From a virus (lineage: Duplodnaviria; Caudoviricetes): 64,000 nucleotides of DNA. Both the position numbers and the translations under genes were made by a program. Positions within the stretch are counted from its first letter, which is position 1. Each line of letters starts with the position of its first letter. Below the pieces are notes generated by a model. The model was not told the DNA's origin. It was given only the letters and a program-made list of their open reading frames with translations, and did no database searches. Below, one piece after another: positions 2,722-52,599 of this stretch. The stretch is from positions 48,853 through 112,852 of the IMG/VR virus record IMGVR_UViG_3300032038_000028; one strand, 5' to 3'.

Positions 2722-5700
2722 TCAGCTGGCTTCTGCCAGCCTGTAACGGCACAGGTAGTAATATGTCCGCCCGTTGTAGGTCTTCGGGTACCATGAGTTG
2801 GTGTAGACCGGTTTGCCGCTGCCGGTCTCCGGGACGACGCGCAGGATGTCGCCCTTGGCGAACTGCTCCAGATAGCTGCCGTCCTTGATCGTCCACTCAT
2901 GGGTGCCACCGTCCTTCAGGCTGACTGCCGTAAAGGAGTAGGCCCACGGCTTGCCTGTCTTCTTGGACGTCAGGACGCGCACGTCGGACGTGACGTAGAG
3001 GAGAGCTTTGCCGTCGTTCCCCAGCGGTTCGACGTAGCCGAGGTACTCCATCTGGGCGCGGGCCCTTTCGGATGGCTTCGGCGGCGGGAGATGCTGAGAG
3101 CGGACATGGGCTTCGCACAGGGACAGGAGCTTCGGCATGTCGGTGATCGTCCAGCTCTTGAGCGTACCCGCCTTGCCCTGGTCGGTAGCGGCCGACTCAA
3201 TGATGCCCGACAGGCGGTAGGCTTCCACCTTGTCCTTGGCGACGCGGGTGAGCGTGCCCTTGTTGAGCTCGGTGAAGTAGGCGTTGATGGCGGTCAGCTC
3301 CGACGGATTGCCGAAGGCGGCGAAGAAGTCGAGCTGGATCAGGATGTCGAGCTGCAGGGAATTGAGGCTGGTCTCCTGGTCGATCACCTTCAGGACATCC
3401 ATGAAGGAAGCGTCCTGCGGCAGATGCTGAGCGGCTTCGTACAGCTGGTCAGCCACGTCTGCGTTCAGATGCTTGATGGACAGCAGCCCCTTGTAGATGA
3501 CGCCGTTTTCGGTATCGAACATGTAGTCGGCCCGGCTGTGGCCCCATCGTGGCGGGGAAACGGTGACGCCGTGGCTTCTGGCGTAGGCGATGACGGCCGC
3601 CGTCTTATCCGCCTTGTCGGCGTAGACGTTGAGCGCCGCCGCTACGAAGGGGAGCGGGTAGTGATAGCGCAGATAGCCGATGGCATAGCCGATCATTGCA
3701 TAGGCCAGGGCGTGGTTGCGGCTGAAGCTGTAGGAAGAGGCGTCCAGTATGGTCTGAATGAACGGCTTGACGATCTGCTGTGCCTTCTCCTTGGTGACGT
3801 CGTCGTAATGGGCCGGAGCGTATTCGACAAAGCGCCGCTCGATCTCCGGCAGAAGGGATTCCGTGCCCTTCTTCTTGGCGATGGCGCGGCGGACGCTGTC
3901 GGCTTCGCTGCCGGAGTAGCCGCAGAAGAGCTCCAGCCATTTCATAACTGTTTCCTGATAGGTTGCGAACCCGGCTTCGTCTGCGAGGAAATCATTCAGC
4001 GCCTTACAGCCGTTGTCGCGCACCTTCCCTTCCGCTACCTGATCACGGTAGGATGCGCTGCCGGGCCGGAGAAGGCCAGAGGCGAATGCGAACCAGTCGA
4101 TCATGCGGAAGCCAGGGTTGCGGGAGCGGGCCAGAGCGATGATGTCGGGGGACAGAAACTTCTTCAGATAGGCCGTGGCCTGTGCGGATTCAAACTGGAA
4201 GATGCAGGTCGTGTCTTCCCGGATGGACTGCCAGACCTTTGCGTCTTCCATGTCCATGTTGTCCGGCGTCAGCCGTTCGATGCCGGCGTAACGGCAGGCG
4301 CGGTTGATCAGGTCGTTGGAATCCAGCCCGAGCTCGTCCATCTTGACCAGATTCAGGCTGTCCAGCTCCTTCATGTTGAGGCAGGTGATGGGGTAGTTGG
4401 AGCCGGAGGAGGTACACAGACCGATCTCTGCGGCGACGTCGTGGTCGGTGACCAGCACGCCGCAGGGGTGAGACCCGTAGGAAACGACAGTGCCGCTGAC
4501 AATATCCACGTACTCAAACAGCTCCGGGTATTTTGCCCGCACCTCGTCCGGTACATTCCCATCTGCGTCCACCGCCTTGGTCAGCTTATCCACTTCATCC
4601 AGCGGCAGGTTGTCTGCCCGGGCGATGTCGCGGATGGCGCCCTTGGTGGCGATGGTGTTGAAGGTGATGATCTCCGCCGTCTGAATCCCGGAGAAACCCA
4701 TCTTGTCGTCCAGCAGATATTTCTTGGCCAGCTCCCGGTCTGCTTCGGCGTAGTCCACGTCGATGTCGGCGAGGGATACGCGCTCCGGGTTCATGAAGCG
4801 GAAGAAGTTGAGGCCGTACTCCATGGCGTCCACGTCGGTAATACCGGTGACGTAGGCACACATGGAGCCGGTGACGGATCCTCTGCCGTAGCCGGTGGCG
4901 ATGCCGTGTTCCTGTTCCCACATGTGCTGGTGATACTTGAGCGCCATGTAGGGGGAGGCGCCGCACTTTTCAAACACGGCCAGCTCCTCGTCCAGACGGC
5001 GGAACAGGGCTTCCCGCCCGTGCCGCTGCATGGCGTAGGGGTGGCGCTCCGCTGCCTGATACACTTCGTCCCGCCAGAGCTTCACCGGGTCGGCAAAGAC
5101 GTTGGGGTATTTGATGGAGCGGTCGACGGTGAAGGGCTCAATCATGTCGGCGAAGTGATTGGTCTCGTCGATGGCGGCCAGGAAGACAGCTTCGGGCAGG
5201 GAATTCTGAGCACGGTAAGCGTTGACCAGCTCGTCGTAGCTCATAAAGCGCAGGTTCCAGTCCGCTTCGTTGTCAAACCGGACGCCCTTGCCCTGCTGGA
5301 GCTTGACCCTGCCCCGGGCATGGCGCTCGTTGAGGGCGTGACTGTCTGTCCCGGCGATCAGCGGGATGCCATAGCGTTTGGAGTAATCCCACAGCTTCTG
5401 GTTGTACTGGGCCTGCTCGGCGACCAGATGGTGCTGGATCTCCAGCCAGCAGCGGCTCCTGTTTGCCCGCATGAAGCGGAGAAACCGCTCCTCGTCTTCC
5501 GACTTACCGTTGAGCGGGCCGCCCAGACAGGCGGAGGTGACGAGGATGTTGTCCGATGTCCCCTCCAGATCGTCCATGAAGATGCGGGGAACGTAGTAGA
5601 AGTGAGTGGTCTCCTTGCGCTCGAAGGAACCGGAGACCAGACGGTTCAGCTCCAGAAAGCCGTCGTAATTCCGGGCGTACAGGATGACGTGATAGTTGTC

Positions 5701-5949
5701 GCGCACCTTTTCCTCCGGGTGCATGGTGACATAGGCTTCCACGCCGTGCAGATACTTCATCCCGGCCTGCTCGACAGATTCTTTTTTGTGCAGCCACTCG
5801 TCGATGTTCCCGTGTTCCGAAAAGCCGAAGGCCTTTATGCCCAGCTCCGCCGCCCGGGCGGTGTACTGGTAGTACCGGGACACCGAGTCGATGTTGGTGG
5901 TGCAGTTGGACAGCATGGTATGTACGTGATAGGGGACGTAATTCTTCAT
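2722..5949 (-). CDS. dnaE: DNA polymerase III alpha subunit (C-family)
   Basis: PHP domain (HVH, EHGN, GVEAY, SACLGG, TDSH), GRGS, RFMNPER, catalytic DIDVD, KMDELGL, YSFSRNHALAY. Confidence 0.97.
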   Translation of the reverse strand: MKNYVPYHVHTMLSNCTTNIDSVSRYYQYTARAAELGIKAFGFSEHGNIDEWLHKKESVEQAGMKYLHGVEAYVTMHPEEKVRDNYHVILYARNYDGFLELNRLVSGSFERKETTHFYYVPRIFMDDLEGTSDNILVTSACLGGPLNGKSEDEERFLRFMRANRSRCWLEIQHHLVAEQAQYNQKLWDYSKRYGIPLIAGTDSHALNERHARGRVKLQQGKGVRFDNEADWNLRFMSYDELVNAYRAQNSLPEAVFLAAIDETNHFADMIEPFTVDRSIKYPNVFADPVKLWRDEVYQAAERHPYAMQRHGREALFRRLDEELAVFEKCGASPYMALKYHQHMWEQEHGIATGYGRGSVTGSMCAYVTGITDVDAMEYGLNFFRFMNPERVSLADIDVDYAEADRELAKKYLLDDKMGFSGIQTAEIITFNTIATKGAIRDIARADNLPLDEVDKLTKAVDADGNVPDEVRAKYPELFEYVDIVSGTVVSYGSHPCGVLVTDHDVAAEIGLCTSSGSNYPITCLNMKELDSLNLVKMDELGLDSNDLINRACRYAGIERLTPDNMDMEDAKVWQSIREDTTCIFQFESAQATAYLKKFLSPDIIALARSRNPGFRMIDWFAFASGLLRPGSASYRDQVAEGKVRDNGCKALNDFLADEAGFATYQETVMKWLELFCGYSGSEADSVRRAIAKKKGTESLLPEIERRFVEYAPAHYDDVTKEKAQQIVKPFIQTILDASSYSFSRNHALAYAMIGYAIGYLRYHYPLPFVAAALNVYADKADKTAAVIAYARSHGVTVSPPRWGHSRADYMFDTENGVIYKGLLSIKHLNADVADQLYEAAQHLPQDASFMDVLKVIDQETSLNSLQLDILIQLDFFAAFGNPSELTAINAYFTELNKGTLTRVAKDKVEAYRLSGIIESAATDQGKAGTLKSWTITDMPKLLSLCEAHVRSQHLPPPKPSERARAQMEYLGYVEPLGNDGKALLYVTSDVRVLTSKKTGKPWAYSFTAVSLKDGGTHEWTIKDGSYLEQFAKGDILRVVPETGSGKPVYTNSWYPKTYNGRTYYYLCRYRLAEAS

Positions 5950-6092
5950 GACTGCTCCTGTTGGTTGATGATGGGGTGTCTGGCGAACACTTCCTCCAGT
6001 GTCCAGCCCTGCTTATACATGTCCCAGACGTCAAAATACTGAAGGCCCGTCATTTCAGCCACCTGACGGATGGTGAATTCCCAGTCCGGCAT
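5946..6092 (-). CDS. small HTH-like protein (48 aa)
   Basis: MPDWEFTIRQVAEMTGLQYFDVWDMYKQGWTLEEVF, coupled to both neighbours; below the ORF-track cutoff. Confidence 0.55.
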   Translation of the reverse strand: MPDWEFTIRQVAEMTGLQYFDVWDMYKQGWTLEEVFARHPIINQQEQS

Positions 6093-8041
6093 CAGAAAGG
6101 CTCTCCTCCCTGTCCGCTCAACGTCAGGTACTTCTGCATATCGAAGAATGGAAGCTCGTCCTCATGCTCCTCCTTATCCCAGTTATAATGTTTCGCCAGC
6201 ATTTCCGGCGAATCATAGAAACGGCGGGACGGGATGTCGTAGAACAGCGGGATGATCTTGCCCAGAGCGCTTCCAAACCTGTCCTTGATGACGCGGAGCT
6301 GGACGTTGCAGTTGGTAAAGGGTTTTCTTCGCCCGGTCTTGCCGAGCTCCCGGTCTGAGTCCTGTACGCGGTACAGCGAGAAGATGCGGTGTGCCAGGTT
6401 GGCGCTGGACGTTACGCCGGACAGATCGAACAGATCAACCGGCCTGATCTCCATCATCTTCTTCGGGTGCAGGACGATCAGGAGAATGATATCCAGCCGC
6501 CGCGCCATCTCGACGCAGTCCCGGATGAAGACGTCCTGTTTGTGGTATTTGTTTTCCTCATTGGCTTCCAGATCCACGCTGGTCATGTTGTCCAGTACAA
6601 CTGTGCGGACACCGTAGCGTTTCACACAGGCTTCAATGGATTCCATGATGCGGGAAATCTGCGGAGACTCCGTATCCTTGTAGAAGTAGAGCTGGCCTTC
6701 ATAATACTGATTGATGCGCCTGCTGGCCTCCGGCTTGATACGGTATACCGTACGCCCGTCCTTCTGCTCGCTGATCAGGTTGGCCTGCCCGGCATGTACG
6801 AAGTCAATCCACGATTTAAGAAGTGGGTTGTTAAGCTCCCCGGAGTACACGAACGTCGGAAAACCCTGATCCACTGACTGGTTGATGATGGTGGACAGGA
6901 AGGAGCTTTTGCCGGAGCCGGTGATCCCAGTAATCAGATTGGTGGTTCCGCAGAACAGTTTGCCGATCGAAGAATCCAGCTCCTCGAATCCTGTTTTGAT
7001 GCCGTCCACGTCGTCCATGTTGAATTCCCTGACCTTGGTGTAGTCAGCGGCCGACATAATTTCCCGTTCCTTTGCGCTGTTGATGGCGTCGATGACGGCC
7101 TGCTTCCCGCCCCTGGCCAGCAGCTCGTTGAGATCCTTGACGTGATGCGGAACGCCGTTATCGTCCGTCCAGTGGTCGGGCACATCCACCACCTTGCAGC
7201 GGTATTCGCCAAGGCGCCGCGTAGCTTCCTTGACAAACTTCTGCCCGGCCTCGTCGTTGTCATGGATCAGGATGATCTCGGAAAACTGCTCCAGCCACGC
7301 CCAGTTCTGCGTGATGAACTGCAAATTTCCGTCCCCCATCGGGATGGATGTCGAGTTGGTGAACCCGCACTCATATGCGGCTGCGCAGTCGCCTTCTCCG
7401 CAGCAGATGATCAGGGGTTGGGTGATGTTGATGTGGTTCATATTGAACAGCAGGTGCATGGTGTCGCTCTTCATCCACCAGCACTTCATCTTGTCCACGC
7501 CCTTGCGGATAGGCCGGCTGGGCCGCACCTTGACGCAGCGGAGCACATCTTCCAGATCCCAGTAGCAGAAGCAGGTGTTGCCGCCGGTGTCCTGCATGAT
7601 ACCAAGAGCGTCGATGGTTTCAGGAGAGATACAGCGTTTCCGCCAGTAGGCGTAGACTTCATCCTTGTTGTCGGCCCATTCCGGCTTGGGGTAGGCGTAG
7701 TCCCGGTCGGTCGGGATGCCGCGGTAGGAGAAGTTGTGCGGCATATCAGCTTCCTGGAACAGCTTTTCGGCCGCCTGCAGGAAGGTATCTCCTGCGCTCA
7801 TCCATGCGTCGATGACGTCGTAGGTGGCATGGCATCCGAAACAGTAGAAGTTGTGGGCTCTCGGGTTATAGGAACAGCTTGGGGTGTCGTCGTGATGGGC
7901 AGGGTTGGGGCAGCACCCGATCCGGCGCTGAGGGTTATACTTTTCCAGCTTCATGACATCGGCGATGATCTCGGCATTCCGGTCGCCCAGACGCTCTTTT
8001 GCTTCTTCGATTCTTTCCCGGCTGATATTGGAGTCCATCAA
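6092..8041 (-). CDS. bifunctional primase-helicase (Zn-binding + TOPRIM + DnaB-like, T7 gp4/Twinkle type)
   Basis: CPNPAHHDDTPS..FYCFGC zinc finger; TOPRIM DNDEAG; Walker A GITGSGKS; VVLDN; LHPKK; KDRFG. Confidence 0.93.
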   Translation of the reverse strand: MMDSNISRERIEEAKERLGDRNAEIIADVMKLEKYNPQRRIGCCPNPAHHDDTPSCSYNPRAHNFYCFGCHATYDVIDAWMSAGDTFLQAAEKLFQEADMPHNFSYRGIPTDRDYAYPKPEWADNKDEVYAYWRKRCISPETIDALGIMQDTGGNTCFCYWDLEDVLRCVKVRPSRPIRKGVDKMKCWWMKSDTMHLLFNMNHINITQPLIICCGEGDCAAAYECGFTNSTSIPMGDGNLQFITQNWAWLEQFSEIILIHDNDEAGQKFVKEATRRLGEYRCKVVDVPDHWTDDNGVPHHVKDLNELLARGGKQAVIDAINSAKEREIMSAADYTKVREFNMDDVDGIKTGFEELDSSIGKLFCGTTNLITGITGSGKSSFLSTIINQSVDQGFPTFVYSGELNNPLLKSWIDFVHAGQANLISEQKDGRTVYRIKPEASRRINQYYEGQLYFYKDTESPQISRIMESIEACVKRYGVRTVVLDNMTSVDLEANEENKYHKQDVFIRDCVEMARRLDIILLIVLHPKKMMEIRPVDLFDLSGVTSSANLAHRIFSLYRVQDSDRELGKTGRRKPFTNCNVQLRVIKDRFGSALGKIIPLFYDIPSRRFYDSPEMLAKHYNWDKEEHEDELPFFDMQKYLTLSGQGGEPF

Positions 8042-8050
8042 ATCACCGCC

Positions 8051-8803
8051 TTATTTGTAGTCGCATACGGATCTGGTGTCGCAGAGGTTATGACAGAAGA
8101 ACCAGTCCGGCATGGGAAGGAAGACCTTGGAGTTCTCGATCCGCTTGATGCTGTCGATGGCCCAGTTGACGGCTTCTAGCTCGCCGGCTGCCGAATACGG
8201 TTCCTCGATACGGATGCCGGACTTGAAACAGTTGAAGACCAGCTTGGTCACCTGCCCGAACTTCAGCTCCCGGCAGGCATGGGCATATAAATAGAGCTGG
8301 CGCAGATACCGATCCAGCTCCTGATCCTTGATGGTGGGTTTGCGTTTGCCGGAGCGCGGCTGCAGGTCATGGCTCTTGTGATCCATGATGACCAGCCCGC
8401 CATTTTCACGGTAGAGCAGGTCGGCAATGCCGATGAAGCGGTACTTGCCGACATGGAATTTCAGCCGCTGCTCGACGCCGACGATGTCGTCCGGCGTGTA
8501 GATGTCCTGGGCGAAGTAGTTGAGTCCGCTGGTGAGGTAACGGCTTCTGCGTTTGGAATCCGTTTCCGGCAGGGTGATGAACTGGCGGATGAAAGTAGGG
8601 ATGATCTGTTCCTTTTGGATCTCGCCCTTGTACCAGCGCTCGTGAAGCTCGTGGACGAGGGAGCCGTAGGCGGAGAAGAAATTCTGTTCCCCGCGCTGGG
8701 CTTCCCCGTACAGATACTTCTGAGCGAAGCCCCACGGGCATTGCTCGAAGGACTGGAGTCTGGAGTAGCTCCAGACCCAGTCGTCAAAAAGTATGCTTGC
8801 CAT
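8051..8803 (-). CDS. PD-(D/E)XK (Cas4/RecB-like) nuclease
   Basis: WSYSRL..F.QCP, GSLVHE, GIADLL..IMDHKS, QLYLYA and C-terminal Cys cluster. Confidence 0.9.
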   Translation of the reverse strand: MASILFDDWVWSYSRLQSFEQCPWGFAQKYLYGEAQRGEQNFFSAYGSLVHELHERWYKGEIQKEQIIPTFIRQFITLPETDSKRRSRYLTSGLNYFAQDIYTPDDIVGVEQRLKFHVGKYRFIGIADLLYRENGGLVIMDHKSHDLQPRSGKRKPTIKDQELDRYLRQLYLYAHACRELKFGQVTKLVFNCFKSGIRIEEPYSAAGELEAVNWAIDSIKRIENSKVFLPMPDWFFCHNLCDTRSVCDYK

Positions 8804-8815
8804 GACGGCACCGCC

Positions 8816-9193
8816 TTAGAAGGGCAGCTCGTCGGTGTCTTCTTCCACTGCAGGAGCAGCCTTGGGCGCGGCAGCAGAAGACTTTGTTCCGGATCCACCC
8901 TTGCTGTCGGCCATCTCGAAGTCCCAGACGCAGAAGGTGTAGCGGTTGATTTTCTTTTCCTTGTCATACTGAGAGGTGACGCTGGTCTGCAGGAGCTTGA
9001 CGCGATCCTTCTCCTTCAGCTTCGCTGCTTTCCTGGCGGCGTCTCCGCTGAAGAAAGCGTAGTCACCGAAGTCGTTGATGTACTCGCCAGTCTTCTTGTC
9101 CTTATAGGACGTGGAAATACGGACCTTCATGGAAGATCCACGGGTAGGTTTGACTTCCCAGACGGTTGCAAAAGCGTTGTCACGAAATGCCAT
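8816..9193 (-). CDS. ssb: single-stranded DNA-binding protein
   Basis: OB-fold sized, acidic tail ending DTDELPF, in the recombination module. Confidence 0.85.
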   Translation of the reverse strand: MAFRDNAFATVWEVKPTRGSSMKVRISTSYKDKKTGEYINDFGDYAFFSGDAARKAAKLKEKDRVKLLQTSVTSQYDKEKKINRYTFCVWDFEMADSKGGSGTKSSAAAPKAAPAVEEDTDELPF

Positions 9194-9208
9194 AGTGCTG
9201 GTTCCTCC

Positions 9209-9934
9209 TTACTTCTGTTGCTTATCCAGATAAGCGCTGACGGCGGCGTAGATGTTCTGCGCGTCCTCAAGCGACTTGATCTTCAGGTAGTTGCTGGACG
9301 GTTTTCCGTCGATCTTCAGGTTCTTCTTGATCAGGGCGGTGATCTCAGCCTTGTTTTCCTCGGTCAGGTTGGCGCGGATCAGGGTGTCCAGCTGGCCGAC
9401 CAGCAGGGTGACGGCTGCGGCTTCCTCTGCATCCGCTGCTTCGCTCTTCTTGCGTTTCCATTCGTCGGGATCATCTTCCGGCGTGGCGATGCCGAAAAAC
9501 TTCATCATGAAGTAGCGGTTGGAGTAGGTGAAGGAAGAGCCGACGGCCTGAGAGTCGTCCGCCTGCGATCCGACGAGCGGCCAGGGGACGACGATCGCAT
9601 CGTCCGGGTTGTCAGTGTTGACGACCCTGAAGTTCAGCCAGCCGCGCACGCAGTATTCCGACTGCGGATCGTCGATGTAGGACTGGGTCGCCTTGTCGAA
9701 CTTCTTCTTGATGAAGTCCCGGCGCTCGATGCTGAAGGACGACATGTCCGGGATGGGGTAAATGAAGAGGTTGTACTTGTCCAGACCGGCTTTGACCTTG
9801 GCCAGAACCTCGTCTTCTGATACGTAGCGGTAGCCGTAGCCGGACTTGTTCTTGGCGATGACGTCCGCAATGGAGCGGACCTTCGCCAGCTTCTGCCACA
9901 GATTCATGGTGGCGGTGTCGATGCTTTCTGCCAT
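9209..9934 (-). CDS. erf: ERF-family single-strand annealing protein
   Basis: NLWQKL...KNKSGYGYRY; QAVGSSFTYSNRYFMMKFFGIATPEDDPD matches the ERF GSxxTYxxRY motif. Confidence 0.9.
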   Translation of the reverse strand: MAESIDTATMNLWQKLAKVRSIADVIAKNKSGYGYRYVSEDEVLAKVKAGLDKYNLFIYPIPDMSSFSIERRDFIKKKFDKATQSYIDDPQSEYCVRGWLNFRVVNTDNPDDAIVVPWPLVGSQADDSQAVGSSFTYSNRYFMMKFFGIATPEDDPDEWKRKKSEAADAEEAAAVTLLVGQLDTLIRANLTEENKAEITALIKKNLKIDGKPSSNYLKIKSLEDAQNIYAAVSAYLDKQQK

Positions 9935-9978
9935 ACAAACTCCTTTGCAGTTTCAATAAAAAAGGTCAGCCGGCCGGG

Positions 9979-10004
9979 ATGACTCAGGTCAACTGACGCA
10001 TAAT
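9979..10004 (-). promoter_or_regulatory. ATTATGCGTCAGTTGACCTGAGTCAT element upstream of the replication operon
   Basis: 24 of 25 nt match the repeat at 51690-51714, in the same orientation relative to transcription. Confidence 0.7.
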
Positions 10005-10020
10005 AAGGGAGTATCCTATA

Positions 10021-11163
10021 TCAGGATGCAAAAGACTCGTCTCCGGCGACCAGACGATCGCGGATCTGTTCGAGGCGGTCGATCAGGTTGTTGACCATCA
10101 GGTACGCCGTTCCGGCGCGGTCTCCGCACAGAGGGCGCGGATCATTGGCGACCTCAGAGAAGGCACTCATACAGGCGGAGATCAGAGAGCTGACCAGTTC
10201 GATGTCCGCCCCTGCCTGAGCTTCGTCTGCATCCTTCATGTACTGGTCGCGTTCCTCAGTGAGCCGGGCAATCTCGGCGGAATCCCCGCCCTGTTCGTCG
10301 AGCAGTTTTTCCATGGCGTCCATACGCTTCTCGTGATCCGCTTCAGCTTTTTTCAGCTGACGCTTCGCTTCCTGAAGCGCCTCGTAAGTGTTGCGTTCCT
10401 TGGTTTGCAGATCTTGAATCTTCTGACGCAGTTCCAGTTCCCCGTCGCCATTCTGGTACTCGGCAAGTCTTGCCTGAAGCTCTTCGACCTTCTGTGCCTG
10501 CGGGATATACTTCTCCGTCAGTTCCTTTGCCCGTTTCCGGATCTCCTCCTGTGTATACTTTTGCATGGAGTCCAACTGCATCACAAGCTCCACCTGTTGC
10601 TCCGGCGGGAGTTTTGCGATCACATCGTAGGCGACACGCGGTGGAATTACACCGCATTCCACCATGTCCTGCACAGGCTCCGGCATCACAGACAACGCTT
10701 TCGCACAGTTGGCAACCTTTTTATCGATGCCAAGATGTTCCTGAATATCCTTGCGGCTGACGGTGCCCGCACCGGGCTTTCCGCCAGAGGAACGTTTATC
10801 CGCGCCGTAGATCCGCTCATACTCTTTCATGATCCGTCCGAGCTTGACGGAAGGAAAGTTGATTATCCCGCGCTGGCGGAGATTGGATTCCATCAGGGCC
10901 AGCAGGATATCGTCTTCCGGGCATTCGCCTTTCGGCTGGTAAACGTAGCAGCGGACGGTGGGAATGTTCAGTGCCAGACAGGCGCGCCAGCGCTGATGAC
11001 CGGAGATGATAGTGCCATCTTCGGTAATCATCAGTGGATGCAGGATGCCTTCCCGCTGGACGGAGGTCAGGAACTCTTCCCACTTCTCTCCCTCGATATC
11101 GTCGAACAGGTACTCATTCATCGGATGCGGCTTCAGGTCAGCGACTTTCTTTTCAATCAGCAT
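10021..11163 (-). CDS. parB: ParB/Srx N-terminal domain protein with HTH and coiled coil
   Basis: LKPHPMN, GILHPL, ISGHQRWRA (GxxR), ESNLRQR. Confidence 0.85.
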   Translation of the reverse strand: MLIEKKVADLKPHPMNEYLFDDIEGEKWEEFLTSVQREGILHPLMITEDGTIISGHQRWRACLALNIPTVRCYVYQPKGECPEDDILLALMESNLRQRGIINFPSVKLGRIMKEYERIYGADKRSSGGKPGAGTVSRKDIQEHLGIDKKVANCAKALSVMPEPVQDMVECGVIPPRVAYDVIAKLPPEQQVELVMQLDSMQKYTQEEIRKRAKELTEKYIPQAQKVEELQARLAEYQNGDGELELRQKIQDLQTKERNTYEALQEAKRQLKKAEADHEKRMDAMEKLLDEQGGDSAEIARLTEERDQYMKDADEAQAGADIELVSSLISACMSAFSEVANDPRPLCGDRAGTAYLMVNNLIDRLEQIRDRLVAGDESFAS

Positions 11164-14165: not shown

Positions 14166-14194
14166 ATTATACAGTTTTGTGTGGGTGGTGTCAA
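14166..14194 (-). promoter_or_regulatory. consensus sigmaA promoter
   Basis: TTGACA-17 nt-TATAAT on the minus strand. Confidence 0.85.
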
Positions 14195-27227: not shown

Positions 27228-27267
27228 AATTTACCTTCCTTTCTGGCTCCGTTGAGCCTGTACAATG

Positions 27268-27329
27268 TAGCCTGTCTCGTCAGTAACGGGCGGCCATTCC
27301 CGTCAGACCGCCCGAAGGCGGTTTCGACA
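27268..27329 (-). ncRNA. type II hammerhead ribozyme (HH1)
   Basis: GUC-GAAA-CCGCC(UUCG)GGCGG-UC^-UGACGGG(AAUGGCCG)CCCGUUA-CUGACGA-GAC; loop UGGCC can pair with 3' GGCUA. Confidence 0.93.
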
Positions 27330-30139: not shown

Positions 30140-30168
30140 AGTATAAACGTTGTGACATGCGCTGTCAA
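30140..30168 (-). promoter_or_regulatory. sigmaA promoter
   Basis: TTGACA-17 nt-TATACT. Confidence 0.8.
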
Positions 30169-31286: not shown

Positions 31287-32394
31287 AGTGTACCTCCATG
31301 GCGCCAGTGGCGCAGTTTTTTAGCTCGGGCCGTCATCATTGCAGGCGGCGCGAACAGGGAGGCCCGGCCGATCGAAATCAGCAGGGCCTGAGGAAGTACT
31401 ATATGCGCACGGCCGAAGCCGAGAATTTCGCATGGTTTAACACTTATGCCAGTTACTATGCGTATCGCCCACAAGCCGCTCCCAGATACTAAGAGCCAGT
31501 AACAGACAGGAGAGATGACAAACCTGCCCCATCGCGGACGATTCGCCAGTGCGCTGACACTTGGCGAGTAACGGCAACTTCGGTATGGTGCCACTACCAG
31601 ATTGTACCCCCGTACTACACGAGCAGTCTGTACAGGTAGGCTGACCGCTTCACAGCGGACCACAGACGACCCCGCGCAAAAAATGCGACAGTTTCCCGTC
31701 TGCGATGCTCATGCCGCCCAGCCGCTATGCGACCGCGCGACACGAGCGCGAAACCCGCGCCGCGACCGCCGCGCCAACCGCGACCGCCGCGCGCTTTATT
31801 ATCGCGCTCACAATGGACGGGAACGAGACCGAGAAAAAGTATGAACAAACTGTGAACAAATTATGAACGAGAAAAAGAGTGAAAACGCGACCGCGACCGC
31901 CGCGCGGATACGCTGACGGTTGGAAAAGTAACACTTTCGTAACATGATTTTTGATTTTTGATCAGAAAAGCGGGGAAATACTCACGCATAAAAAAAAGCC
32001 CGTCTTAAAATCGAGATGAAAATGCCTGTGAAATGAGGCGTTTTAACATATGAACAGGCGCTCAGACTTAAAATCGACCAGATACGACAAAAAGAGCGAA
32101 AAAACGCCGAAAAACAGGCATTTTCCGGGCTATTTTTGATCAGGAAACGCCATTTTCCCCGCCGTCAGAGGAAAAACGGTATAAATGTTACAAAAATGTA
32201 ATAATTATATACAGAAAATGGATAAAAATACATATAAAACGGCAGTTTATACATTGATATACATTGAAATTGTATAAAAAAATCTCAAAAAAATAGAGAA
32301 AATCGTCTGATCAGGCAGGAGAATTTCACTTTTTGTCGAATATGTATAGTGTAATTCAATACACCACACCACTACATGAAGGAGGAAACACACC

Positions 32395-33960: not shown

Positions 33961-33989
33961 TTGACTTCACAGGCCCGTCGTGGTATAAT
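33961..33989 (+). promoter_or_regulatory. sigmaA promoter of the recombinase gene
   Basis: TTGACT-17 nt-TATAAT with TG extension. Confidence 0.8.
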
Positions 33990-48486: not shown

Positions 48487-51042
48487 ATGCAGGCGCCGCC
48501 GCTGTACATTGTCCGGTCGATTGATCTGAGGACGCTGGTCGCCAATGACTACGTGCTCAACATTTCGCCGGAGGAAGAAAAGAAATACCTGATCAAGCAG
48601 GCGGACAGCCCCTATCTGCGGCTGATCAGGCAGGTGACCGGGGTGACGTCAAGATATAACCCGTTCATCATCTTCGTTGACATCAACTACCACAAGGACA
48701 TCGCGCTGGTGATCTCGACGCTGGTGCGGAACGGGATCCGGGTGCGGGGCAGGAAGTTTGTGATGGCAGAGAGGAGCGCGTCCATGGTTCGCCAGGGCGT
48801 GCTTTCTTTTATCGACGCCGGGATCGCGGACATCATGCTGGAAAAGGTGACTATGGGGCTGAGCATCGGTGAAACGGTGCTCAGCAAATGGTACGCCTAC
48901 CGCGGCCTGCTGCTGAGCTCGGCTCACTGCGTGGAGGACTACCTGCCGAAATTCATTGTGGTGCCGGACTGGATGACGACCGTCAGCAATCAGCACATCC
49001 GGTACCTGTACGATGATAAAAAGACCTACGTCAACCAGGAAGGGAAGTCCTTCGAGTGGACGCAGAAGAACGTGGCCAGCGACATCCGCGACATCACGAT
49101 TAACGCGTTCGACGGCATGGGGATCATGCACAGGAACATCGCGGCCGAGATCGAGCGACGGACACACAGCACCACGCCGATCACCACCTGTATCTTTCGC
49201 GCCCCCTTCATCAAGGGCTGCCTGCATGCGATCGACTACGAGGCGTTCTTTGAGGAGCGCGGGGTTGAGTACATTCAGGATATCTGGGGCAGATACCACA
49301 GCGTCCACGATGAAATGGTTATCCTGACGGAGAGCATGTATAAGGGCCTCAAGTATTTCAAGCTTTATGGTGACAGTCGGGACTGGGATCGGTACTGGGA
49401 TCTGTTTCAGAAGTACGGCCACTGCATTGCGATCGCCCGGACAAACTTCACCGAAGACGAAGAGCCGGTGTACACCCGGAGCAACTATCAGATTTTGCAG
49501 ACGATGGATCTCCCGTATGCGGATTTCAGGCGTCTGGCGGATGAGAGTGTATACTGGATCAACAAGATCGTGGACGGCGACGAGCTGTACACCAAGTGCT
49601 TCCTCGGGATCGTGGACGGCAAGTGTAATGCCCTGAACCCGTACGTGGCAGCCATTGCGAAGAATGACGACATGATGCGGGAGCCGACGATCAGGCGGTA
49701 CGTGATCTCGCTGGTCGAGAAGTACATGGACGACATGAAGTGCGGGAAGCTGTACATCAAGTCATGCTTCAAGTTCGCCATGCCGGACATGATCGCCTTT
49801 CTGGAACACATCGGCGGCCTGCCGGTAAAAGGTGTGCTGGGGCCGGACGAATTCTGGACGCAGGCAAAGTATGTGAAGTACGACGGCGAATATCTGGTGA
49901 CGCGCAACCCGCACATCTGCAAGTCGGAGAACGTGGTGCTCAGGCAGAACAACGACCCGGAGATCCTGAAGTGGTGCGGGCATCTGACCAACGTGGCGAT
50001 GGTGAATGTAAAGAGTCTGGTAGCGCAGAGATTGAACGGGATGGATTTTGACGGGGACATCATCCTGATCAATGACCACCCCCTGATGCTGCAGGGGTCA
50101 GATAAGAACGCGCTGATCACCATTGACGTAGAGGACAAGGTGACGGCGTTGGCCGAAGAAGACACGGAGATCGGACGGATCGCCCTGATCTCCAGAACCA
50201 CGAAGAACATGATCGGCGAGTTCAGCAACTACGCCAGCGTGTATCTGAACCGCATCCCGCAGAAGGAAGAGCAGAAGAAGCGGTATGACGATTTCCTGTC
50301 GACGATCAGCGTGACCGTCGGAAAATCCATTGACTACGCAAAGACCGGGGTGCTGTACCCCATGCCGCGGGTGATCAGCAAATACGGCCGGCCGCTTCCA
50401 TACTTCATGCGCTACCGTTCACCCTACTACGCCAGACAGCAGCTGGCCCGGGCACCGAGCAACATGAACCGGCTGTGCTGGGAGCTGGAGCGGTGGGAGC
50501 GTGGGATACGCTGGAAGAAGGAAGGCCGGTTCGACTGGCATCTGATGTATGATGACAACGTGACCTACACCAACGAACAGTTTGAAGCAGTGGAAAAGCT
50601 CTTCCTGGATTTCTGCGCGGAGGTATCACGCGTCCAGAAATATCAGGCGTTGGTGCGGAAGTATCAGGCGAAGGATATCCGGGAGAAGTACACGAGGGCG
50701 GAAGCGTCCTCCTATATCGCCGATTGGGACAGCCTGTACCGGCGGTATAAGGAGCTGGGAAAACAGGTCTGCCCGGACGAGCGGGTGCTGGCCAACATCG
50801 GTGTGATCTTGACGTACGTCAAGTATAAATCCCGGGGAAAGAAGTTCCCGTGGATTGTGGCGCCGGACGGGCTGATTCAGAACATCCGCCCGAAAGACCT
50901 GATGTATATACCGGAACAGTGCGACGACGGAGCGTGTACCTATCTGGGCAAGCCGTACAAGCTGGTGCCCAAACTGGCGGATGATCTGGAGCTGAGCCTG
51001 GAGCCGGATATTTTTGATGATCTGGAGGGATGGAATGGTTGA
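48487..51042 (+). CDS. yonO: YonO-like single-subunit two-barrel RNA polymerase
   Basis: SASMVRQG, AFDGMG, RAPFIKG, VTRNPH, catalytic NGMDFDGD and IDYAKTG; upstream of SPbeta-like head genes. Confidence 0.88.
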   Translation: MQAPPLYIVRSIDLRTLVANDYVLNISPEEEKKYLIKQADSPYLRLIRQVTGVTSRYNPFIIFVDINYHKDIALVISTLVRNGIRVRGRKFVMAERSASMVRQGVLSFIDAGIADIMLEKVTMGLSIGETVLSKWYAYRGLLLSSAHCVEDYLPKFIVVPDWMTTVSNQHIRYLYDDKKTYVNQEGKSFEWTQKNVASDIRDITINAFDGMGIMHRNIAAEIERRTHSTTPITTCIFRAPFIKGCLHAIDYEAFFEERGVEYIQDIWGRYHSVHDEMVILTESMYKGLKYFKLYGDSRDWDRYWDLFQKYGHCIAIARTNFTEDEEPVYTRSNYQILQTMDLPYADFRRLADESVYWINKIVDGDELYTKCFLGIVDGKCNALNPYVAAIAKNDDMMREPTIRRYVISLVEKYMDDMKCGKLYIKSCFKFAMPDMIAFLEHIGGLPVKGVLGPDEFWTQAKYVKYDGEYLVTRNPHICKSENVVLRQNNDPEILKWCGHLTNVAMVNVKSLVAQRLNGMDFDGDIILINDHPLMLQGSDKNALITIDVEDKVTALAEEDTEIGRIALISRTTKNMIGEFSNYASVYLNRIPQKEEQKKRYDDFLSTISVTVGKSIDYAKTGVLYPMPRVISKYGRPLPYFMRYRSPYYARQQLARAPSNMNRLCWELERWERGIRWKKEGRFDWHLMYDDNVTYTNEQFEAVEKLFLDFCAEVSRVQKYQALVRKYQAKDIREKYTRAEASSYIADWDSLYRRYKELGKQVCPDERVLANIGVILTYVKYKSRGKKFPWIVAPDGLIQNIRPKDLMYIPEQCDDGACTYLGKPYKLVPKLADDLELSLEPDIFDDLEGWNG

Positions 51043-51664
51043 CGAAATGGCGGAAGCCAGAAAGTATTTGAGCGGGCAGCAGCTCGAGCAGAAGGGAAAT
51101 CTGTATCGCGCCTGTTATATGGTCGCCAAGTACTACAAGCAGCTCGGCTGTGACGAAGAGGCGATCTTTCAAAAGACAGCCGAGTGGGTCAGGACGTACA
51201 ACCTGACCCTCGGCTTTTCTCTGGCCGGATGTATCGCCGCGGCGTATATGAACGATAGGGAACTGCGCAACGGAAATGTCGTCCGCATTTCCAAAGAGGA
51301 TGCGGACACCATTCGGCTGTACGCGTTAAACAAGGCAGACAGACGGGTGGCCCTCGCGCTGCTGTGCTGTGCGAAAGGCTATGCAGGATCCGACGGTTCG
51401 TTTGTGGCCAGCAGCGGCGCCATTGGCAGTTGGCTTGGGATGGACGCTGGTAATGTGCGTAGCCGTTATATCCCAAGGCTTGTTAAGATTGGTTATATCG
51501 AAAAGCTCCCGACGCAGGAAACAATTCGCGGCTGGCAAAAAAACTATTACCGCAACGCTTACAGGCTTCGCTTGAAAGTGCCGTATCGTGATGACGGGGA
51601 ATGGGAGCTACGCAACAACGATATCCGGACATTGTATACACAGGTTTTCGATGAGCCGTTTTAA
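51035..51664 (+). CDS. RNAP-coupled hypothetical protein with possible winged HTH
   Basis: Overlaps the RNAP stop; SSGAIGSWLGMDAGNVRSRYIPRLVKIGYIE. Confidence 0.7.
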   Translation: MVDEMAEARKYLSGQQLEQKGNLYRACYMVAKYYKQLGCDEEAIFQKTAEWVRTYNLTLGFSLAGCIAAAYMNDRELRNGNVVRISKEDADTIRLYALNKADRRVALALLCCAKGYAGSDGSFVASSGAIGSWLGMDAGNVRSRYIPRLVKIGYIEKLPTQETIRGWQKNYYRNAYRLRLKVPYRDDGEWELRNNDIRTLYTQVFDEPF

Positions 51665-51689
51665 CGCGCCTGTTATTGGGTAGGAAATA

Positions 51690-51744
51690 ATTATGCGTCA
51701 GTTGACCTGCGTCACTTGACCCGCGTCAGTTGACCTGCGTCATC
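51690..51744 (+). repeat. 14-bp tandem repeat GCGTCAGTTGACCT (about 3.5 copies)
   Basis: GCGTCAGTTGACCT GCGTCACTTGACCC GCGTCAGTTGACCT GCGTCA. Confidence 0.92.
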
Positions 51745-51775
51745 TCCTGCCACTAAGCTGAACTACGGAGGCTAT

Positions 51776-51943
51776 ATGATCAGAATCGACAAGGATGAAG
51801 CGGCTTATCTGCGCGAACGGTTTCCGGATGTAACCATTACCCGGACGATGAAGCAGAGGAGCAAACGCCACCGCTATTACGTCGAGGAATCCCGAAAGGT
51901 CCTTGGCGCGCTGGATAAATACAGAAGGGGTGGTGTACGATGA
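51776..51943 (+). CDS. small basic protein (55 aa)
   Basis: GGAGG SD; MIRIDKDEAAYLR...KRHRYYVEE; below the ORF-track cutoff. Confidence 0.7.
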   Translation: MIRIDKDEAAYLRERFPDVTITRTMKQRSKRHRYYVEESRKVLGALDKYRRGGVR

Positions 51944-52599
51944 AGAAACTTGACGGAGAAATCATGCTGCCGGTCATCCAGACGTGCGGCAGTCTTGCGA
52001 ACATGCAGCTCCCCGACCCGGAGCTTCTGCAGGATTACCGGGACGACGCCCGGAGGGTCTACTGGCTGGACGACGAGATCACCGCAATGGACAACCTGTT
52101 CATCCGGCGCCTGATCGACTGGAATCAGGAAGACATCGGCAGGCCTCCCGAAGAGCGCAAGCCTGTCTATCTGATGATCGACACGCCCGGCGGGGCGCTG
52201 GATACGACGTTCGCTCTGATCGACGCGATTCAGGCCAGCCAGACGCCGGTGATCGGCGTGGTCAACGGCATCGCCTACAGCGGCGGCTTCTACGTGCTAC
52301 TCGCCTGCAACAGGCGGCTGGGCATGAAGCACAGCAGCTACATGATGCACCGCGGCAGCGGCGAAGTCAGCGCGCCTGACCAGCGGGCTGCCGAGATGTT
52401 CATGAAGCAGTGGAGCTCTCAGGTGAAGACGCTGACCGACTACGTGGTGGATCGTACGGATATGACATCCCGCGAAGTCAAGAAAGCCATCGACACGGAT
52501 ACCTACTATTCTGCGGACGAAGCGCTGAAGAAAGGCATCCTGACTGACCTGATCAGTTCCTACGACGTGCTGCTCGAAGATATGGCCAGTATTGAATAG
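51940..52599 (+). CDS. clpP: ClpP-like protease
   Basis: IDTPGG, AYSGG (Ser), MMHRG (His), DTYYSADEALKKG. Confidence 0.92.
   Translation: MKKLDGEIMLPVIQTCGSLANMQLPDPELLQDYRDDARRVYWLDDEITAMDNLFIRRLIDWNQEDIGRPPEERKPVYLMIDTPGGALDTTFALIDAIQASQTPVIGVVNGIAYSGGFYVLLACNRRLGMKHSSYMMHRGSGEVSAPDQRAAEMFMKQWSSQVKTLTDYVVDRTDMTSREVKKAIDTDTYYSADEALKKGILTDLISSYDVLLEDMASIE

Follow-up and report, generated by a model that had tools for sequence, protein, structure and literature searches.

The leaders of two operons in a phage genome, one for late and one for replication genes, carry nearly the same short tandem repeat, which raises the question of what reads this repeat and to what effect. We examined it in a window of 64,000 nucleotides, the whole stretch of DNA that was analysed, corresponding to bases 48853-112852 of a 112,852-bp IMG/VR phage record. 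A preliminary description of this window had taken a 14-bp repeat to be the element. The repeat is real, but it is merely the downstream part of a larger conserved element, and comparison of its sequence across phages indicates that this element is probably the promoter region of the phage's YonO-type enzyme.

The repeat that had originally drawn attention lies at what we call the late site:

51694-51742, plus strand: box array of the late site, four heptamers at a 14-nt period.

Three of the boxes read TGCGTCA (51694-51700, 51708-51714, and 51736-51742, plus strand) and the remaining one reads CGCGTCA (51722-51728, plus strand), with the spacers GTTGACC, CTTGACC, and GTTGACC in that order. 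Tandem Repeats Finder reports a period of 14 with 3.5 copies and a score of 84 for this array, a period matched by 0/200 shuffles. The minus-strand copy, ATTATGCGTCAGTTGACCTGAGTCA at 10004-9980, is identical to the plus-strand copy at 24/25 nt, and a 15-mer search allowing up to 2 mismatches returns 4 matches against 0.25 expected, a number equaled by none of 100 shuffles. The repeat is confirmed at both sites with the identity first reported, and the whole-genome motif scan that had been called for, once run, finds exactly two sites in 112,852 bp, the late site and the erf site, with no third copy of the repeat anywhere in the genome. The array had been placed about 30 nt ahead of the clpP operon; it in fact lies 34 nt ahead of a conserved 55-aa ORF, which intervenes, so that the array is not immediately 5' of clpP. 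The inverted repeats that had been read into the unit (GTCA-n2-TGAC and TGAC-n4-GTCA) are present here but belong to one sub-clade only: the spacers of the sister clade contain no TGAC, and the conserved unit is therefore the 7-nt box at a 14-nt period.

The genes around the two sites are as follows:

48487-51042, plus strand: YonO-type single-chain two-barrel RNA polymerase of 851 aa, with DFDGD at residue 520.
51035-51664, plus strand: partner protein of 209 aa, modeled as an N-terminal helical domain followed by a C-terminal winged helix.
51776-51943, plus strand: conserved 55-aa ORF beginning MIRIDKDEAAYLRERFP, the first gene past the late element.
10021-11163, minus strand: ParB-like protein of 380 aa, the last gene ahead of the erf-site element.
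9209-9934, minus strand: Erf, the first gene of the replication operon.
2722-9934, minus strand: the erf operon, comprising Erf, a 125-aa ORF, a PD-(D/E)XK nuclease, a primase-helicase, and a DnaE-type polymerase.

The 851-aa protein matches Pfam PF05183 (RdRP) at 4e-14 and PHROG 8308 at 3.5e-70, finds SPbeta yonO by tblastn at 3e-18, and is 38.5% identical to gp3 of Thomasclavelia phage TR-TP1; together with the DFDGD motif, these matches bear out the earlier statement that a YonO-like enzyme is encoded. The ATG of the partner gene overlaps the YonO stop by 8 nt. Homologues of the 55-aa ORF, 35-57% identical, occupy the same position in many distant YonO phages; the ORF is matched by neither Pfam nor PHROG, does not resemble SPbeta YonK, and is followed by genes for a ClpP-like protease, PhoH, a YonJ_N-type exonuclease, terminase, and portal. 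The ParB-like protein is assigned by Pfam ParB_N (2e-5, 25 bits, just below the 26.3-bit cut-off) and PHROG 12047 (3e-17). In some relatives the YonO gene itself appears interrupted, by an inserted ORF with a GIY-YIG-like start in L008 (744-1502) and by a split into two ORFs in L006 (6052-8862) and L007 (6025-8850), which suggests homing-endonuclease or intron insertions.

Alignment of related sites on the sequence TATG reveals an oriented element of three parts, in the order block A, block B, and boxes. The clade comparison comprised 10 late sites (window, L028/L043, L044, L046, L029, L008, L005, L006, L007, and L024) and 4 erf sites (window, G001, G002, and L054). In the window, the parts outside the late array are:

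51671-51684, plus strand: block A of the late site (TGTTATTGGGTAGG), kept in 10/10 late sites of the clade and alignable with distant phages.
51686-51695, plus strand: the AT-rich block B of the late site (AATAATTATG), with TATG at its end, the TG of which opens box 1.
10011-10022, minus strand: block A of the erf site (GATATAGGATAC), beginning within the stop codon of the ParB-like gene.
9980-10006, minus strand: block B of the erf site (TTATTATG) and two boxes, TGCGTCA and TGAGTCA, at 14-nt spacing.

Block A reads TGTTATWGG at the late sites of the clade; its core in the window is TGTTATTGG at the late site and ATATAGGATAC at the erf site, and the latter block is the window's best match to the family-wide consensus, TATATGGATAC. 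Block B, WWTTATG, starts 18-22 nt past block A and is invariant in all 14 clade sites, with the late-site version aligning with TAATAATGT of distant phages. The boxes are TGNRTCR heptamers, the first of which begins at the TG of TATG and is followed by another every 14 nt. At all 14 sites the element is oriented toward the downstream genes, and in the window the erf-site element ends 45 nt before the erf ATG.

The boxes vary among phages: they read TGCGTCA in the window and L029, TGTGTCA in L028 and L046, TGAGTCA in L044, TATGTCG in L008, and TGTATCA in G001 and G002 (TGTATCR when the L054 erf site is counted), and they are mixed in L024. TGAC occurs in the spacers of the window's sub-clade only. 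There are 3-4 boxes at late sites and 2-3 at erf sites, in keeping with the earlier proposal that copy number tunes strength. Positions 3-4 of the box have drifted between close relatives, and even inside one array (L024), and box number at late sites varies from 3 to 4, which indicates repeat turnover by slippage; given the drift, the homogeneity of boxes may owe as much to turnover as to selection.

The placement of both sites is conserved. The late element directly follows the YonO-partner pair in 10 distinct lineages of the clade, and the element recurs at the junction of the ParB-like gene and erf in four lineages (window, G001, G002, and L054), each with its own boxes, the ParB-like gene ending 1 nt ahead of the element in 4/4. 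The observation that the element also fronts replication genes thus extends to a conserved placement. G001 (116 kb) and G002 (107 kb) are complete genomes, in which pairs of the phage's own boxes 14 nt apart are found at the late site and at one intergenic site, which separates the ParB-like gene from erf on the opposite strand, 36-38 kb from the late site; the erf-side site of L054/L055 matches this pattern. More distant Erf phages, in which there is no ParB-like/erf junction, show no erf-side element. A whole-genome scan with TTATGNNTCR returns two real sites in each of G000, G001, and G002, plus one look-alike in G002. This look-alike (L015; C1:58071-58094, minus strand) consists of block B and two boxes (ATTATTATGTATCA, 7 nt, CGTATCT), and sits in an AT-rich early divergent control region rich in other direct repeats.

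We further compared a distant set of 31 IMG/VR loci with homologues of the partner, 28 of which were tested for the neighboring gene; a YonO homologue, 37-51% identical, lies immediately 5' of the partner gene in every one of the 28. About 12 distant lineages carry the A-B core after the YonO-partner pair or after a terminator, ahead of the first late gene or of tRNA genes. In most of these loci, the gap after the partner gene contains TATATG(G/A)AWAC, then TAAT(A)TGT 3-9 nt on, and then phage-specific tandem repeats, and a MAFFT alignment shows that these two blocks coincide with blocks A and B of the window's clade. The repeat units differ from phage to phage: ATGTGCATATTTT in 3-4 copies (L310), TAGTTAA in 5 (L312), TTTTCATTT in 4 (L323), TGATTCATTTTAC in 3 (L326), ATGTTTACA in 6 (L329), and TATACCATT in 3 (L330). 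The period is far steadier than the sequence, with the best autocorrelation at 13 nt in 11/11 distant phages and at 14 nt in 9/10 of the window's clade, and with the observed autocorrelation reached by at most 1% of shuffles in 17 of 21 arrays. Loci without a gap after the partner gene have the element about 1.3 kb downstream, past a strong terminator and right before the homologue of the 55-aa ORF, and two or three copies of the element occur in L330/G005 and L333. In L329 (3157-3390) and L333 (4615-4850), the element stands immediately 5' of tRNA genes, suggesting that the phage polymerase may also transcribe phage tRNAs. On the evidence of these alignments, the three-part signal marks the putative starts of operons in about 22 lineages of related phages, all with a gene for a YonO-type polymerase.

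The cultured Thomasclavelia phages TR-TP1 and TR-TP2, which grow on T. ramosa YY17, have the YonO-partner pair, with a motif resembling blocks A and B after gp4; in TR-TP1, no second intergenic copy of this motif was found, the post-gp4 gap sharing only AT-rich chance words with the genome. A search of viral and genome contigs with the pattern TGTTATWGG-N9-14-TTATGNRTCR gave chance matches only and no prophage host; among about 190 pattern matches, a single one, in a Gemmatimonadaceae genome, had a second box.

What kind of signal might the element be? The earlier claims that both sites lack a sigma-A promoter and that both face transcription hold: a search for sigma-70/sigma-A promoters (TTGACA-/TATAAT-like hexamers 16-18 nt apart) gives 0 matches at both sites, and the orientation is confirmed. 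Only in its early regions does the window have canonical sigma-A promoters: near-consensus TTGACA-17-TATAAT promoters are found at 33961, 35665, and 37631 on the plus strand and at 30168 and 14194 on the minus strand; the last of these is perfect (14166-14194), and three of the remaining ones have an extended -10. No intrinsic terminator covers the repeat, at 51400-52000 (plus strand) or at 9700-10300. Terminator-like hairpins in relatives lie upstream of the element and never inside it, for example at the G002 erf site, where one overlaps the ParB-like stop just 5' of the element, and at the same place in G001, where folding gives a 9-bp GC-rich hairpin that the terminator scan does not list. 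Between box 2 and the erf ribosome-binding site of the window (9954-9984, minus strand) a small hairpin (GTCA..CCGG/CCGG..TGAC) precedes TTTTTTATT; it may act as an attenuator and is missing from G001 and G002.

The element gains no folding energy over shuffles (z of -0.4, -0.4, and -0.1) and has no conserved fold, and Rfam 15 has no match up to E = 1 at 51500-52000, nor any match at either site in a scan of the window at gathering thresholds. Elsewhere in the window, Rfam matches a Hammerhead_II ribozyme at 27266-27329 (minus strand; 49 bits against a gathering score of 37).

RNA from relatives offers a view of the late site. In metatranscriptome contigs from 4 runs in 3 studies (relatives 90-99% identical), cover is zero over 51337-51670, sparse and low over the polymerase genes, and continuous downstream from 51739, 51739, 51758, and 51797 in the four runs; because these contigs are assembled and derive from relatives, have no strand or true 5' ends, and may break at a strain-variable array, the gain of cover at the late array is only a hint of a transcription start. 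In the contig from run X6, 51739 is preceded by 24 bases without a match in G000-G002. These extra bases resemble TATG plus two TGGTCA boxes 14 nt apart, and the contig may come from a strain with a two-box array.

The protein encoded between the polymerase and the late element has no match in Pfam or PHROG. Its AlphaFold2 model (pLDDT 89) contains, at residues of about 98-185, a predicted winged helix similar to the DNA-binding domain of CAP (Z 8.3, rmsd 1.5 A over 65 residues), with further structural matches to TFE-alpha (Z 7.7) and the N-terminal domain of DnaD (Z 7.2). We found 19 close homologues, and the homologue in TR-TP1 is gp4 (hhalign 99.4%). The family has 202 representatives at 50% clustering, mostly stand-alone proteins of about 205 aa; its longer members either are fusions with HNH/NUMOD4 homing endonucleases or are themselves AEP-TOTE primases. 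The relation to the C-terminal HTH_36/winged-helix module of the AEP-TOTE primases (P0159, P0160, and P0166, about 500 aa) is distant, at an E of about 1e-7. No partner-polymerase fusion was detected by sequence. A structural-cluster row for the partner fold has RdRP on 26% of its members, which is a lead only.

Taking these observations together, we consider it rather likely that the YonO core promoter is formed by blocks A and B, and that the partner protein probably binds the boxes as tandem sites. Initiation would occur near the G of TATG. Since the first box opens at the TG of block B and further ones follow at intervals of 14 nt, or 13 nt in distant phages, the boxes would fall within the first 30-60 transcribed bases; likewise, their position downstream of the AT-rich block, the last one abutting the ribosome-binding site at the erf site of the sister clade, would put them in, or overlapping, the initially transcribed region. 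With less certainty than for the core promoter, the boxes are best read as tandem binding sites of the 209-aa winged-helix protein, because its gene is adjacent to and translationally coupled with that of the polymerase, because it has a predicted DNA-binding winged helix, and because the repeats diverge fast compared with the conserved core. The partner may then be a loading or specificity factor for the polymerase. The late element would drive the packaging and head operon, and the erf element, with fewer boxes, would more weakly drive the operon from erf through ssb, nuclease, and primase to polymerase. The setting of the late element (YonO, partner, element, small ORF, and later the YonJ_N exonuclease) is syntenic with SPbeta. 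What tells against a promoter is, on the one hand, the resemblance of the partner fold to winged helices of the replication-initiator type (DnaD at the Z given above, HTH_36, and the AEP-TOTE module) and, on the other hand, the perfect sigma-A promoter at 14194 (minus strand), which could feed the erf operon by read-through.

The preliminary description had the 14-bp unit read by the YonO-like enzyme or its partner. The element does stand at operon starts of YonO phages, but the unit may not be the polymerase's target, since the parts conserved across the family are the blocks upstream and the boxes vary by phage. Within the same promoter model, the repeated unit includes the ATG of block B in L310, L329, and L008, and each box could therefore instead be a repeated copy of the initiation site. 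A fuller version, which we regard as possible though doubtful, is a two-protein holoenzyme of the YonO chain and its winged-helix partner that would use a core of TATATGGATAC, a short gap, and TAATATG, followed by an internal array of 2-6 repeats at a fixed period of 13/14 nt; the partner-bound array would confer private specificity, and repeat number would set strength.

Among other explanations, an operator array, although unlikely, survives best. The boxes would be tandem sites for a repressor or timing regulator, possibly the partner or a lysogeny factor, that sits just 3' of a promoter and holds off elongation into both operons until the proper time. Direct repeats between an AT-rich promoter-like block and a ribosome-binding site do occupy a classic roadblock position, phage-specific box sequences would suit a private regulator, and SPbeta provides a precedent in the repeated SPBRE bound by the master repressor MrpR (PMC10516654). 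Yet none of the canonical early promoters carries the element, which has two sites per genome, compared with about ten for SPBRE, and a repressor gene overlapping the polymerase gene would be an odd design. An operator array still requires a promoter in blocks A and B, so it overlaps with the core-promoter explanation. An operator of the SPBRE master-repressor type in particular was rejected, given two sites per genome and none at canonical early promoters.

The boxes might alternatively act in RNA, as repeated protein-binding motifs in 5' leaders that serve processivity, antitermination, stability, or translation control. They would be transcribed if initiation occurs at block B, two of them apparently lie inside one RNA contig, and their loose spacing, with the third box at the sister-clade erf site coming after 10 nt instead of 14, is easier to accommodate in RNA than in phased DNA binding. 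We nevertheless judge this quite unlikely: there is neither a conserved or significant fold nor an Rfam match, a translational leader would make no sense before the tRNA genes of L329 and L333, and the candidate reader encoded next door carries a winged helix predicted to bind DNA.

It is very unlikely that the host polymerase reads block B as a weak sigma-A -10, aided by a phage activator on the repeats. Late activators of Gram-positive phages, such as Alt of TP901-1, do bind direct repeats, and -10-like hexamers such as TATTAT and AATAAT can be found in block B, but a -35 element is missing, and the repeats are found on the downstream side of the -10-like block. The last box of the sister-clade erf site abuts the ribosome-binding site, leaving no room for a promoter after the repeats, and the element is strictly linked to phages with the YonO-partner pair.

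We consider it just as hard to believe that the two sites are replication origins about 42 kb apart, with the boxes as iterons beside an AT-rich unwinding block and the partner as replisome organizer. Two origins have a precedent in Bacillus phage SPP1, in which oriL and oriR are bound by G38P; one of the present sites adjoins replication genes, both have direct repeats beside an AT-rich stretch, and the winged helix of the partner resembles DnaD, HTH_36, Cdc6-type initiator domains, and the C-terminal module of AEP primases. Against this, the orientation is strictly conserved, the gaps measure merely 85-110 nt between terminator and ribosome-binding site, some phages have tandem copies or copies before tRNA genes or the first late gene, and the partner gene is coupled to the polymerase gene rather than to replication genes. 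The strand-switch region at 31.7-32.3 kb is also more origin-like. This non-coding region of about 700 nt (31680-32300) lies at the GC-skew minimum, contains GC-rich CGCGACCGC repeats, three 11-nt AAACTATGAAC repeats, and a long AT-rich stretch, and is a candidate replication origin or lysis-lysogeny control region.

A parS-like partition site, bound by the ParB-like protein whose gene precedes the erf site, ParB having been named at the outset as an alternative binder, is extremely improbable because a palindromic site is not conserved: although the ParB-like gene ends at the erf-site element in 4/4 lineages and short inverted repeats occur in the window's sub-clade, the sister clade has the same ParB-like gene without inverted repeats (the dyads are missing), the larger array lies 42 kb off beside the polymerase genes, and distant phages have the element, made of direct repeats rather than 16-bp palindromes, without the ParB-like arrangement. 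A pac site was rejected because the SPbeta-type packaging start lies upstream of yonO, between yonR and yonP (bioRxiv 10.1101/2021.11.22.469490), and because the element occurs twice.

YonO is the founding single-chain RNA polymerase related to cellular multi-subunit enzymes, and the core-promoter explanation supplies a candidate promoter and a candidate specificity factor for it. If this explanation is true, a small polymerase with a single small factor and a short promoter would make up a new orthogonal transcription system, and it would become clear how these phages of gut and rumen pass from early genes driven by the host to late and replication programs of their own.

The closest known system is SPbeta itself, the one YonO phage studied so far, in which YonO initiates the late operon at a point between yonO-yonN and yonK-yonJ, the published start being genome position 2225998; the discoverers stated that the YonO promoter was undetermined, and left open which promoter is recognized and whether a factor is needed (Forrest et al. 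2017, PMC5467207). No later publication that we found identifies either the promoter or a factor for YonO. Like the late site described here, P_YonO involves the same polymerase family, has its start shortly 3' of the genes for the polymerase and a small DNA-binding protein, is followed by a small ORF and a YonJ-type exonuclease, and serves one long late operon. Unlike the window phage, SPbeta has the HU-like YonN in place of the winged-helix partner, of which it has no homologue, and the bracket of about 190 nt between the primer-extension primers (L020 2050-1858) contains no clear A-B motif or 13/14-nt array. Exact words of the SPbeta start region were not found in genome contigs, nor did a YonO search of control genomes give a match.

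SPBRE, which occurs as one 15-bp site at each of about ten early sigma-A promoters, including that before yonP (PMC10516654), is comparable as a phage-specific repeated intergenic element in an SPbeta-type phage. The present element differs in being composite, in avoiding early promoters, and in marking the starts of late and replication operons. A different parallel is offered by the internal control regions of RNA polymerase III, where factor-binding boxes downstream of the start position a two-barrel polymerase; this is an analogy only, with no homology, and it holds only if the partner binds the boxes.

Promoters of other phage polymerases also bear comparison, such as those of P23-45 gp64/gp96, which are compact motifs within about 30 nt upstream of the start (bioRxiv 10.1101/2022.12.01.518664). 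As in P23-45 and T7-type systems, the motif described here is repeated at the starts of transcription units and is distinct from host sigma promoters; unlike in those systems, the window phage has just two sites per genome. We know of no promoter of the P23-45 or T7 type described with a fixed 13/14-nt tandem, phage-specific array directly downstream. What would thus be new here is a candidate phage-polymerase promoter with a fixed-period downstream array, together with a candidate coupled factor.
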